From Flaccisagitta enflata (Eukaryota): 64,000 nucleotides of DNA. Position numbers and translations under genes: made by a program. The notes under the pieces are model-generated. The model had not been told where the DNA came from. It ran no database searches and saw only the letters and a list, made by a program, of their open reading frames with translations. Positions 37,401 to 46,400 of the stretch are shown piece after piece (positions within the stretch are counted from its first letter, which is position 1; each line of letters starts with the position of its first letter). The stretch spans positions 27,776,001 to 27,840,000 of the forward strand of contig OZ231126.1 of NCBI GenBank assembly GCA_965153355.1. The letters are read 5' to 3'.

Positions 37401-40400
37401 GTCGAAAAAAGGGAAAACGAGCGTTTAGGATATGTTTGAATGGGGGTTGGATGCCCCTGCCCACCCGTCCGCAACGATATTGTGACCCCGCGTCACTTGT
37501 TCTCAATCTTGAGCGCGTGATAACAAGCTTAGTAGCATGAAGAGAGCCCAAACGACAAAGGACGCATCTGTAGATCGAATCTCGGCTTTGTTTTCTTACT
37601 TAACCTTGCCTGATCTGTTTCATTTCCGTTCAGTACTTCTTCAATTTCCTGTCTCAACCTAATGCACTCACTTATCTTGATCTCTCCGGAACGGAAATTT
37701 CTCTAGAAAATGTGAGTACCTATCTTTTTATTGGGTGCGGGTTGTGTTTCAATTATTCGTTTAGAAATGGCCAATTCCTAGTATGGCTGTATATGGTTAA
37801 CAGTTATTAAAATCATTTTATCTAAAAACGTTAAAAAACAAGGCTGGATACACGGTAATACAGCCGCGGACGGTTGGGCAGGGGCTGTAACGCAAAAACT
37901 GCTCGTAATAAAAAAATGTTACTGAGGGACAGACCGACGGACAGACGGACCGACGGACAGATGGACCAACATGGCAGGGTGGAGTCGCGTGTCCGCGACG
38001 TAGAATTATTAATCAATGGACTGATGTCTCTACGTTATGAAAAAAGCTGTTGATGGCCTGAGTCAGTATCATGACGCTTTATGTCAATAAATAGATGTAT
38101 TCTCATGATTGTTGAGCAGAATTGGGTGCAGAACTGTTAATAAGGTTGCGTAGGACATAGTATCAATATGAGACGATTCAAACGATGGACTATTGGGATG
38201 GATAGGGCAGTAATCTTTGTAGAAGGCACACGATTAAAAGTTTCTTAAATGATATACTTGGTCACACGTCTAATTTTATAAAGTTATATTCTTTGAACTC
38301 TGTTAGTGAAGAGGAAAAGTCATCACTTAGAATTAGTTTTTGATATTGCATCTAGTGTTAAAGATAAGCAGGGTGGAACTAATCGGATAGGAACGATCGT
38401 TCATTGCCATCTTTATTGATTATACAATTAGAATCGTTCAGATGCGCCACATTCGATTTGGACTTGATCTTCCGACGCGACTGATGTTGTTGTTGAGGCA
38501 TTTTCAAGCACTGAAGCAAAATGAAATGTGAGAAAAAGCAAAGCGCTGTTGCAGTTGTTAAAGCAGGTTGAACATGGACGAATCTTTCCAGATGAATGAA
38601 AACAAAAGAATGATGACTGAAAACGATAGAAAAATGAATGAGTGAATGAAAAAGTATGATTTTAATGAATAAGATGATTTTAATAATATGATTTTAATAA
38701 TATGATTTTAATGAATAAGAAGGAAACAAAATATTCGCATAAGCGTTACATGGTCAGCGGTACCCGATGCCTCTAAGTCTATGTGAGAATGAGATGATAA
38801 GAGGGGCAGCAGCCTTAGAGAGGCTAAAGAACTATGATTCCACATATGACAATTTTCTCCTGTATGAGAGGCTGGTTTTGGGGGCTGAGAGGCCTGTTTT
38901 GTGGTCTGAAAGGCCTGTTTTGTGGTCTGAAAGGCCTGTTTTGTGGTCTGAAAGGCCTGATTTGGGGTCTAAAAAGCCTGATTTGGGGTCTGAAATGTTT
39001 GATTTGGGGTTTGACAGCCCTGAACTGGGGTCTGAAAAGCCTGATTTGGGGTCTGGTAGGTGTTATTTGGGGTCTGAGAGGCTTGATTTGGGGTCTTATG
39101 GGTCTGATTTAAGGTTTGGTTGGCCTGATTTGGGGTCTGAAAGGCATGATTTGGGGTCGGAAAGGTCTGATGTGGGGTCTAAAAGGCCTGATTTAGTGTA
39201 GAACAGGCTTCATTTGCCGTTTGGGAGGTTTGTTTTGAGGTTTGGGGGGATGGACGGAAACTAGAGAAAATTGCCCCATCTGGATTGTGGAATCACAGTT
39301 TATCGGCCCCTCCAGGGCCACTGCTCAAAAGGAATCGAAACGAAAGAAAAATTAATGAAAAAGAGAAAGAAGAATGATAAATAAAGGAAGCATAGATGGA
39401 AGAAAGGAAGAAATATGAAAGAATCGTAGAGGGAAAGATTAAAAGATGAAAGATATGGAGATTGAAAGGAAGAACAAGGCCAACACCTAAGTCGCGTGCG
39501 AGACTTACATAATGACTTAGAATGACTTAAAATGATTTAGTTTACTCCTGAATGACTTATTATGACAAAAAAGTAAAAGCGTGATAGGCCGATTATGACG
39601 GACAGACGGACAAAGTGGAGTGTAGAGTCGCGTGCACGCAACTAAAAATAAATGAATCAAGAAAAAGAAAAACAATGAATCTAAGAAAGGAAGAAAACTA
39701 AATGAATCAAGGTAAAAAGAAAGAAGCCACAAAAATTGAATCAATCTCAAGAAAAAAAGAAAGGTAAAACTATTGAATGAATCAACAAAAGAAATAAAGA
39801 AAGTAGGAAAGAAACAGGGAAAGAAGAAAAGAAAGATAGAAAGGGGAGAAAGGAGGAAAGAAGAAAAGAAAGGAGGAAAAAAGGAAATTAAGAAGGAAAG
39901 AAGGAAATTGATAGGGAAAGAAGGAAATTGATAGGGAAAGAAGGAAATTGATAGGGAAAGAAGGAAATTGATAGGGAAAGAAGGAAATTGATAGGGAAAG
40001 AAGGAAATTGAGAGGGAAAGAAGGAAATTGAGAAGGAAAGAAGGAAATTAAGAAGGAAAGAAAAGAAGGAAGGGAGGGAAGGACGGGAAGGAAAGGAAGG
40101 GAGGGAATGAATTAATGAAACGAATGAACAAGAGAAAGAATGAATGAATGAATGAATGAATTAACGAAAGATGAATTTATTATACCGTTGTTTTTATACC
40201 GATATGGAAGAGGAATTAATGAAGATTGGATAATGAATGAAAGAATGAAAAATGACTAAATGATGAATGAATGGAAGTGGAAATGAAAGAAATGAAGAAT
40301 TAAAGGAAGACAGACAAAAGTGGAGACTGGAAAAGGATATAAGACAGTGTGCTGAGGGAATGAAAATTTAGGATAACAACGAAACGGAGAAAATTAAATT

Positions 40401-43400: not shown

Positions 43401-46400
43401 AAAGTTTGGTATTACTGGCGCATACTGTCAGGAAAGTGATTACGGTCAAACGAGCCCTACCCATCGTATCCTGTTGATGACCGTAAAACCATGAGCAGTT
43501 GATGGATGAGTGCGCGTTTTTCTCAACGAATCGTGCCGGTCCGGTTAAAGGGAGACTAGTTCCGTTTTCCTCAGTGATTTTCTCGAAATCACAGTCGGCG
43601 CGATTGCCTTCGGCCATTCCGTCTGATAGTATTGTACAAAAATCGTGCATCTTATAGTTATACCACATAGTTCATACGTGTTTATCTTCTATGACAAGTC
43701 ACTATATTCAATCCGGAATAAACCGCCTTATGAATCGTCATTTTATTTTTAGCTATTTCTAGCTAACAGCGCAACTTTTTGTCCCTTACTTTCGATGTAT
43801 GTAAAATTTGTTTTTCCGATGTTAAATTGATGAAGAGCTTTCTCCTTTGGCTGTTGAAGATATGAGATGAATTTTTCCATGGTTTCGCTGAATTGGTAGC
43901 TTTGACTCGGTATTCTGTGGATTTTGATCAACACATGCAGCTGACTACCCTCGTCCAGCGAGGGAATCATCGACATGCCTGTTGACAATTTGGAAAAGCT
44001 GATATTTAAAATCACTCATCCCTCTGCTGCGGCATGTAGCATCTTAGGTTTGGAATCTATGTAAAAGCCTGTGACATGGCGTCTGTTTTCAGTTGAGGGG
44101 AGGGGGAGGCCGGAGGGGCCGTTATCCCGTAAGTTACCTGCAATCTTGATTTGACTCAATGTAAAAGGTGAATGAACGTCACCGACGAATGCAATCAGCT
44201 TCTTTATGACGTCTTTGGAGGAGCCAAGTGGAGGTCTACTGGCTTTGTTTTCTCTCTCTGATAGTTTGGATTAAGATTAGAATGTATTGTTTTATTCAGC
44301 GTCAGCAAGTACTGAGAAAATCATTTTGTGTGCGAATGAAGATGTGTAATTTGAATCAGGACTAACCGTGATTGATTTCTTCATCCACCCGAAATGTTAG
44401 CATCACCTGGTTAAGAAAAGATTTCTGTCTACACATGGACGCAAAAGAGTGTGATGGGGGTCTTGAGGGGACAAAAGTTTTAGCCCCCCCCCTCTTGTCT
44501 ATTTAGGTTTAAATTTTTTTTATCGAAAGTTTCTTAGAGTAACTTATCGGAATATAAATGGTGTTGTCAGAGAGATTCTTAATATTGTATTTTGAACTTT
44601 TAAATTGATCGTTTTTCACTCTATTTCTTTATTTTGTTTAGACTGTATATTTTTGGAATAGTGATAAATTTCAGGGTTCTAGTTACAATCTAAAAAATTC
44701 CTCTGATGATGTTATTTATATTCCCCTTACTTAGCTTAAAACAATTTTTATGGGAAGTTTTAGCAAGCCAATATGGTTGTCAGGGGGGTGCTAAAACTTT
44801 TGGCGACTAATCACTATCTATTTTGCGTTCATCTGTAAGTGATTTGCTGATTTTAGTCGTTTGGGATACACGCAGCCTCGGACTTGATTTTGGTGTGCTA
44901 TCATTGTACATCCAAGTGCGTTAGAACCTGGCCCGAGCGTGAAACCGGAAGTTCGTTCCGGTTGCGGAAAAAGGGCAGGGTCGCTCTAAAACGATAATGG
45001 GCTGCTTGGCCGTGACGGTAACGGTATTGAGAGGAAGAAGAAGAAAGAAGAAAGAAGAAGAAGAAAAAGAAAAAGAAAAAGAAAAAGAAAAAGAAAAAGA
45101 AAAAGAAGAAAAGAAAAAAAGGAAGAAAAATGAAGAAAAAAAACCTCTCTCTCTCTCTCTCTCTCTCTCTCTCTCTCTCTCTCTCTCTCTCTCTCTCTCT
45201 GCCCCTTGCTTATATCTCCTTACCTGTCGGTCCATCAGTCTGGCAAGTGATATGACCTCTTTAAAAATGTGACGTTGTCTAGCGTATTTTTGAAGTTGTA
45301 ACCACAGATGAGTAAATACAGATACCTATGATTATTGAAGACCCGGCCCATACCGTACCGTCTCCGACACGATATTGCAATGAATTGCATCGTTACGCCA
45401 CGTGGCGGAAAATGGCGTTGTTGTAACGTCCACGGGATAGAGGTTTACCGCAGTGTCACGCTCGGCCCAGGTTAGAACTAAGACTATACCTTCCAGCTAG
45501 GGTCCTCGGTATCGGTTTTCGTTGATGCGACGGCATTGAGTGTAAATGATAACCCCACAATCGACGATTCCATCAGATAGAAAACCAGTGTCAAAGAATG
45601 CAACATAAAAGCTGTGAAGATGAAGGTGACAGAAATTCTTTGAAAAAGAACTAGGCCGGCTACCCAAGTTACGGAAGGGGAAGTGATGAAATTGATTATA
45701 TCAAAGAATTGGGTCCAGGGCGTTTTAAACGTTCAAAATTTTTGTTACGGATTGAATGATAGACTGACCAACAAGCTGTGAATTATGAAATCGCGTGAAT
45801 GCGACTAAAAATCTGAGAAAACAAGGCCAGATACGCGGCCAATAAGCAGTCGCTGACGGGTGGGCAGGAGCTGTTTTCTAATGGGCAGGGGCAGTCATTT
45901 GGTGGGCAGGGGCTGTATTTTGGGTGGGCTGGGGCTGTTATTCTCAGAAATTACAAAGTCGGCCAATTTCGCGTCGTCGAAAATTTCTTGTGACGGACCT
46001 AGGTAGGTAGGGACACACCCTCTTATAGAGTCGCTTAGTCAGCGACTAAAAATGTTGCAAGAAGATAGAAAAAGTTAATGGCGTGGTTGCGCTTCTGTGT
46101 TTAGGACGTCATTTTAGATGGGTAAATATCGGCTAATATACATGGAAGCTTACACTACTACCTAGGACTAAAGAATTGCAACAGTTTTAAACTAAAATTA
46201 GTTGGCTTAAAGATAGAATTTGACCTTTTCTTGGTGTGATTAGTTATCTACATCAAATTTTCTTCAAATCTTAGAATTCGTCAATACGTTAGAAATGGCG
46301 CAAGAAATTGTAAAACTTTTTTTGAAAATCATGAAAAAGTTACATAAGTCTCTTACACTCTATACAACATCTTGCGGGCAGAAAACGGAGTCAAAAAGTT

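Follow-up and report, generated by a model that had tools for sequence, protein, structure and literature searches.

NPR-C (NPR3) has an ANF_receptor ectodomain of ~400-440 amino acids (aa), with the periplasmic-binding-protein type I (PBP-I) fold, and a tail of ~37 aa. Venus kinase receptors are single-pass proteins of invertebrates in which a Venus flytrap is joined to an intracellular tyrosine kinase (PMC2680970, PMC4038586). Here we analyse a candidate gene on the minus strand (38428-45606) of a 64-kb stretch of Flaccisagitta enflata DNA (OZ231126.1); this whole stretch is called the window, and all coordinates refer to it. The initial annotation, made by reading the sequence, had taken the gene for a possible new receptor architecture: a class-C-like Venus flytrap followed by one transmembrane (TM) segment and a short tail, with no seven-transmembrane (7TM) part. 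Identity as a Venus-flytrap receptor, and with it a new receptor architecture, is not demonstrated. The locus is probably one real, lineage-restricted orphan gene as modelled here, and its predicted product is a type I single-pass membrane glycoprotein.

The candidate shares some features with each of the systems with which it might be grouped. As in NPR-C, an extracellular domain is followed by a single TM helix and then by a short tail with no catalytic part (72 aa in our model); unlike NPR-C, the candidate is without ANF_receptor similarity and its ectodomain comes to at most 236 aa in the model, and it is not a member of that group. With the Venus kinase receptors (PMC2680970, PMC4038586) it would share the single-pass topology, the invertebrate host and a ligand-binding ectodomain, but it has no detectable flytrap or kinase exon. 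The likeness to G-protein-coupled receptors (GPCRs) of class C and to receptor guanylyl cyclases consists only in the impression that an N-terminal motif had made in the initial annotation. The candidate differs from class C GPCRs in having no 7tm_3 or NCD3G match within 21-64 kb on both strands and a single hydrophobic TM segment, and from receptor guanylyl cyclases in having no kinase-homology or cyclase match within 21.3-64 kb and a tail that stops after 72 aa. With orphan type I membrane glycoproteins it would share a putative leader, an ectodomain that is glycosylated and has a Cys pair, a single TM segment, a polybasic juxtamembrane region and a short tail; with orphan and nested genes it shares the lack of relatives beyond a narrow group and the antisense position in a host intron. 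Orphan type I glycoproteins are a descriptive class rather than a homologous family, and membership assigns neither fold nor ligand. A gene that codes for an orphan type I glycoprotein and lies within an intron is nothing out of the ordinary; for the present one, the proteins searched included no annotated relative.

Homology of exons B and C

The exons of the model are listed in Table 1. Exon B was searched with HMMER against 1.84 billion representative proteins, and exactly two matched at an expectation value (E) of 0.001 or below. The first, P0004 (75 aa, 95% identity to exon B, E 6.7e-32), continues into the intron; it is an unspliced open reading frame (ORF) call from a near-identical genome, and is uninformative on selection. 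The second, P0005, is an unannotated protein of 156 aa with 44% identity to exon B (E 4.7e-05). P0005 also matches exon C, in the same order as B, with 23 of 46 residues identical (50%, E 1e-14, BLASTP against the ORF 43378-43671). When P0005 was compared with the whole window by tblastn, C was found at 43632-43495 (50% identity, E 1.6e-11) and B at E 5.2e-11, and every match other than these two had E of at least 1.1. Neither exon has a frameshift or stop relative to P0005, the only length differences being indels of 2 aa, and P0005 keeps both Cys and two of the three N-glycosylation sequons of B and C. This comparison shows both exons to be conserved coding sequence.

Exons B and C are in phase across a GT-AG intron of 167 nucleotides (nt). 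Between its B and C matches P0005 has ~42 residues that do not align with the window, which is the pattern expected for two exons plus a read-through intron. P0005 and the window both read ..LSDGM.. across the same TCAG/A acceptor (here and below a slash marks the exon boundary), and this agreement would fit an intron of phase 1 that has been conserved and whose frame, in P0005, happens to be open. The alternative to such an in-frame open intron is that B and C are fused in P0005 with 42 extra residues.

Relatives of P0005 were sought in a collection of 5.8 billion sequences, where only P0005 itself was found, on a 927-nt ENA contig; the family is therefore not a repeat. A search for longer homologous proteins with exon B found none, and a search of metagenome contigs with P0005 and with exon B found no relative. 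In the ESM Atlas, P0005 had no usable match (the best, at 0.88, were unnamed bacterial clusters), and likewise none was usable for exon B. The paralogue search that had been proposed for this locus was carried out within the window, where it found no paralogous exons.

Gene model and predicted protein

The model has nine exons and eight GT-AG introns, and its 990 nt read in frame, without an internal stop, into 329 aa. The initial annotation had described an in-phase chain of ten or more short exons giving ~380 aa; the phase and the GT-AG boundaries hold throughout, whereas we count nine exons and a shorter protein. The literal features that it had picked out (the hydrophobic stretch, KWK..KNKRARR, the TAA and the AATAAA) are all present on the minus strand as described.

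As modelled, the ectodomain together with the leader takes up the 236 residues N-terminal of the TM helix and has four sequons and two Cys. The one Kyte-Doolittle peak (2.27, residues 237-257) is the sole TM candidate, and the tail of 72 aa contains 12 K/R (eight of them in its first 20 residues), nine D/E and 14 S/T. In the model the sequons are N-terminal and the basic residues C-terminal of the helix, as in a type I single-pass protein. At residues 1-24, the leader encoded by E1, the 19-residue Kyte-Doolittle window exceeds 1.4; this leader has a Glu in its core, and the donor of E1 is weak. The single TM segment, the basic stop-transfer and the short tail (~70 aa) of the initial annotation are thus reproduced, with a tail that is non-catalytic. 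Its view that both a cysteine-rich domain and a 7TM part are absent also agrees with what was found: only two Cys precede the TM segment, with no cysteine-rich domain, and Pfam searches of 66, 122, 113 and 107 ORFs, on both strands within 21-64 kb, gave no 7tm_3, NCD3G, kinase or guanylate cyclase match. A downstream 7TM exon, to which the chain might instead be spliced, was looked for by Pfam and ORF scans and none was found; a downstream 7TM or cyclase part is unlikely because exons of the host gene, CARMIL, start ~700 nt past the stop codon.

Splice-site percentiles, here and in Table 1, were obtained by ranking each site against every AG or GT in the window. An exon filter passes only 28 distinct minus-strand intervals in the 64 kb, and these include X, B, TM and K. 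Exon K has a single open frame, which is the continuation of the frame of the TM exon. At least one exon must lie between C and the TM exon, because phase rules demand it; D is our tentative bridge, and others are possible (an earlier candidate for D, with its acceptor at 42908, ranked only at the 50th and 88th percentile). At the 5' end, the donor of A2 (GCAG/GTAACT) scores 4.6 bits (99.2nd percentile) and its acceptor -0.1 bits (91.4th percentile), and the donor of E1 (AAG/GTATAG) is weak at ~0 bits. The frame upstream of E1 is open to 45732, and E1 may be an internal exon with its acceptor at 45611; E1 is the least certain part of the model. One further chain, which came from an unconstrained signal-only gene finder, was rejected as uninformative: it ran through a microsatellite ORF.

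Codon usage was scored with a model trained on 820 codons from the CARMIL, signal peptide peptidase and AMP-binding exons of the window; it separates these training exons from background ORFs (leave-one-out mean +0.10 bits per codon versus a null mean of -0.23). The whole candidate scores z 3.66, a score reached by one of 5000 null chains. Exons B plus C score z 2.56 (44 of 5000 null chains), the remaining seven exons z 2.6 (23 of 5000), and TM, K and T alone z 1.72 (199 of 5000). Splice scores and codon usage together support the exons other than B and C only moderately. A look through sequencing runs gave four RNA runs, three of them marine metatranscriptomes with 6-9% of the sampled words and one a polyA run; these do not count as evidence for the gene.

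It is quite improbable that there is no gene here and that the chain is just a chance collection of intronic open frames chosen by eye. The window has ~40% GC, short ORFs and microsatellites; at this composition chance should yield ORFs of 77-98 aa, and such ORFs are present on both strands. None of the candidate's parts has a Pfam match, and a forced dynamic-programming search closed every gap in the chain with small arbitrary exons; because such a search bridges any gap, in-phase chaining alone is not evidence. What chance would not readily give is that two separate exons agree, collinearly and at 44-50% identity, with a single independent protein, while the sequence between them has no match; splice-site ranks and codon usage are also both above chance.

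Several points weigh against a single intact gene as modelled. Homology is restricted to B and C, and the family consists of three sequences, one of them near-identical to the window. Weak sites are found in D, at the acceptor of A2 and at the donor of E1, and the link from C to the TM exon and the 5' end of the model are therefore guesses. The leader of E1 has its Glu within the hydrophobic core. The TM exon taken alone is unremarkable in codon score, ~34% of null segments reaching the same value. The splice matrices are a generic metazoan consensus rather than this organism's own, and both the splice and the codon statistics are optimistic because the exons were chosen before testing. Finally, the AATAAA follows the stop codon by only 11 nt, which would leave an unusually short 3' untranslated region.

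These points bear on a second account of the locus, in which B and C are real and the chain is not one intact gene, being either a decayed or truncated pseudogene or two transcription units, one with B and C and the other with TM, K and T. We consider this unlikely. The weak splice sites at the C-to-TM bridge and in the 5' exons, where alternatives exist, would fit it, as would the limitation of homology to B and C, the short ectodomain without a domain match and the setting, a repeat-rich intron beside a Tc1/mariner relic. It is opposed by the intact state of B and C relative to P0005, by the splice sites of TM, K and T, which lie in the top 1-2%, with these exons mutually in phase, by the coding-like codon usage of the seven exons without homology, and by the order of all parts within 5.6 kb on one strand.

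On the reading that we prefer, of one intact orphan gene, exons B, C, TM, K and T would be joined in a single transcript, as their splice and codon signals suggest. The product, of ~330 aa, would consist of a hydrophobic leader, an ectodomain of ~210 aa, a single TM helix and, on the cytoplasmic side, a tail of 72 aa. The ectodomain would belong to no recognisable family and would carry the four sequons and one Cys pair; the tail would begin polybasic and end acidic and Ser/Thr-rich, with no catalytic domain. Such an architecture points to a non-enzymatic surface protein, perhaps with a role in binding, in adhesion or as an accessory subunit. The ectodomain would bind a partner, and the tail would serve for anchoring, for trafficking or for phosphorylation-dependent binding of adaptors. 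A bolder proposal is distinctly unlikely: that the ectodomain (~210 aa) has a novel ligand-binding fold confined to the lineage, or is what remains, in extremely diverged form, of one lobe of a flytrap, and that it has been retained in a non-enzymatic single-pass surface receptor or co-receptor whose signalling goes only through partners that the polybasic and acidic tail recruits.

Search for a Venus flytrap

We give very little credence to the reading of the ectodomain as a class-C- or ANF-receptor-like Venus flytrap and of the protein, with its one TM segment and short tail, as a decoy, co-receptor or ligand-capture protein in the manner of NPR-C. In its favour is a likeness seen by eye and not by any tool: A2 plus B resemble the N-lobe of an ANF receptor (IAFVG..HS...IAG-MSMIPS...HRIPSQSYQ...MEKFISYL), and exon C has a Cys pair. 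The single TM segment, the short tail and the lack of 7TM, kinase and cyclase exons fit it as well. The tests of this reading were run ORF by ORF or exon by exon, and on P0005, rather than on the joined spliced protein, and the little probability that is left is for a very diverged or partial flytrap.

First, no domain search supports a flytrap. Among 126 minus-strand ORFs (all those of at least 20 aa in 38.3-45.8 kb, plus flanking ORFs of at least 40 aa), none matched ANF_receptor (PF01094), PF13458 or any other PBP family at E<=1, and upstream there was no ANF_receptor match in minus-strand ORFs up to 64 kb. Pfam matches of any kind were found for eight of the 66 minus-strand ORFs of at least 40 aa in 36.9-49.8 kb, all with E of at least 0.04 and below the curated cut-offs, and none of these eight in a PBP, 7TM, kinase or cyclase family. 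Nothing relevant came from 60 shorter ORFs (20-39 aa) of the minus strand or from 47 ORFs of the plus strand in the region, the best match being a DDE_3 relic described below. The 122 and 113 ORFs of at least 50 aa, from both strands of 21-64 kb, gave only signal peptide peptidase and weak leucine-rich repeat (LRR) matches. P0005, which has the counterparts of B and C together, matched no Pfam family at E<=10, and neither did P0004.

Second, sequences of known structure gave no flytrap either. The ORFs 44019-44270 and 43378-43671 and P0005 match nothing in the PDB (phmmer, E<=10). At the same threshold the ORF 43752-44015 matches DYRK2 (at best E 0.026), an endo-beta-N-acetylglucosaminidase (E ~1.8) and nothing else, with no flytrap chain among the matches; the DYRK2 match was taken as chance, Pfam giving no kinase match. 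A profile of the conserved exons had a single PDB match at E<=10, to an immunoglobulin V chain (E 0.51), again with no flytrap, and the HMMER search of exon B against 1.84 billion proteins returned no receptor. By-eye readings of B and C as CUB-like, SEA-like or NPR-like were dropped for want of Pfam or PDB-sequence support.

Third, known families can be detected here in exon-sized pieces. As an internal control, signal peptide peptidase was recognised in three of three ORFs, AMP-binding in two of two exons and LRR in four of 11 CARMIL exons.

Fourth, the size is unfavourable. A bilobed PBP-I domain needs ~350-450 aa, and the 236-aa ectodomain would be too short for one as modelled; upstream exons are conceivable, the 5' end being tentative. 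A second lobe cannot hide between C and the TM exon, because only 710 nt lie between them.

A check of the fold itself could be taken part of the way: AlphaFold2, run on P0005 with the alignment of the conserved exons, returned a model too poor for fold comparison (mean predicted local distance difference test score, pLDDT, 32; predicted template modelling score, pTM, 0.25), and the profile and PDB searches gave no PBP-I match. The low-confidence model consists mostly of strands, rather than of alternating strand and helix, which is weak evidence against a flytrap.

The class-C-like flytrap ectodomain of the initial annotation was thus reproduced by no search, whether of Pfam, of PDB sequences or with a profile. 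Because the flytrap claim, which carried the interest of the locus, finds no support, no question of a new receptor architecture arises. The orphan-gene reading, if confirmed, would add an unannotated, taxonomically restricted membrane-protein gene in a host intron, with only two related ORF fragments among the proteins searched. Annotation usually overlooks such genes, whose role may be in lineage-specific recognition at the cell surface. The case also shows that no fold should be named for in-phase exons chained by eye until homology or transcripts back the chain.

Host gene, repeats and neighbouring genes

Nearly the whole window is occupied by a CARMIL/LRRC16A gene on the plus strand (1232-62332), with many short exons (Table 1). 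In addition to the protein match listed for the exon at 60548-60688, tblastn with P0001 gave 92% identity over 52 aa at 60536-60688. Given the placement of the exon 37634-37711, for which its LRR-like sequence and splice sites argue, the candidate gene would be nested antisense in a ~20-kb CARMIL intron (37712-57880).

Table 1. Coordinates of the candidate gene's exons and sequence features and of the CARMIL exons
Feature	Position	Strand	Description
Exon E1, tentative first coding exon	45606-45490	-	ATG at 45606; 39 codons; hydrophobic N-terminus
Exon X	44406-44367	-	40 nt, 13 residues; joins E1 (phase 0) to A2; acceptor 2.5 bits, donor 2.6 bits
Exon A2	44212-44138	-	75 nt, 24 residues; flytrap-like by eye; the ORF around it matches nothing in Pfam or, at E<=10, in the PDB
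Exon B	43978-43790	-	189 nt, 62 full codons; conserved coding; conserved NFT sequon; acceptor 96.9th, donor 97.7th percentile
Exon C	43622-43461	-	162 nt; conserved coding; conserved NGT sequon; two conserved Cys; acceptor 89.1th, donor 94.9th percentile
Exon D, tentative C-to-TM bridge	42932-42842	-	91 nt; acceptor -0.8 bits, donor -0.2 bits
TM exon	42750-42628	-	123 nt; helix, then KWKPLLRI; acceptor 4.2 bits (98.3rd percentile), donor 4.0 bits (99.0th)
Hydrophobic 21-residue stretch (TM helix)	42716-42654	-	Direct check of letters
KWK	42653-42645	-	Directly after the hydrophobic stretch; context KWKPLLRI
Exon K	40632-40523	-	110 nt; polybasic juxtamembrane; acceptor 6.2 bits (99.4th percentile), donor 3.4 bits (98.0th)
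KNKRARR	40631-40611	-	In exon K
Terminal exon T	38510-38428	-	83 nt; acidic Ser/Thr-rich tail end; stop TAA; in phase with K; acceptor ttgcttcag/TG 4.2 bits (98.3rd percentile)
Stop codon TAA	38430-38428	-	Closes the frame after ...ERF
AATAAA, polyadenylation-like hexamer	38417-38412	-	11 nt past the stop codon; putative signal
CARMIL exon	1232-1471	+	PDB chain 4k17_A residues 126-204, E 1.6e-23
CARMIL exon	13500-13574	+	Splice signals, LRR-like sequence
CARMIL exon	29687-29773	+	Splice signals, LRR-like sequence
CARMIL exon	30242-30337	+	Splice signals, LRR-like sequence
CARMIL exon	36731-36847	+	4k17_A residues 319-354
CARMIL exon bordering the host intron	37634-37711	+	26 codons, LRR-like, good splice sites; probably residues ~355-384
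CARMIL exon, far end of the host intron	57881-58066	+	4k17_A residues 385-442, E 1.2e-05 (PDB phmmer)
CARMIL exon	58734-58814	+	Splice signals, LRR-like sequence
CARMIL exon	60548-60688	+	ENA protein P0001 covers 69% of the 65-aa query (60548-60742) at 98% identity
CARMIL exon	61349-61483	+	Splice signals, LRR-like sequence
CARMIL exon	62135-62332	+	Splice signals, LRR-like sequence

The sequence between the candidate's exons had been described initially as mostly repeats, and tandem repeats do occupy much of both long introns (38.6-40.3 kb and 41.77-42.15 kb), with a further tandem array at 45.03-45.2 kb. A short dispersed repeat is present in up to five copies in the window (38862-39245, 39596-39657, 41624-41755 and 43333-43404, with more near 36.9-38.0 kb), and one of its frames translates as ...DASSHLY.R.CPSV...; the copy at 43333-43404 sits in the intron between C and D and supplies decoy exons. 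Just upstream of the candidate gene, at 46348-46461 on the plus strand, is a relic of a Tc1/mariner-type DDE_3 transposase (PF13358, E 0.0018).

CARMIL introns elsewhere in the window hold other sequences. A 1.64-kb segment occurs in two copies with 97% identity, at 33363-34986 and 53436-55073, in different CARMIL introns, and both copies contain an internal tandem array with units of ~150-300 bp. Signal peptide peptidase exons (PF04258; E 3.9e-08, 1.3e-3 and 3.1e-10) at 23861-25428 on the plus strand, perhaps beginning from 19576, appear to lie on the same strand within the CARMIL intron 13574-29687. AMP-binding (acyl-CoA-synthetase-like) exons at 9910-11968 on the minus strand (E 3.9e-4 and 2.3e-6) lie antisense in the CARMIL intron 1471-13500, and would represent a second antisense gene nested in CARMIL.

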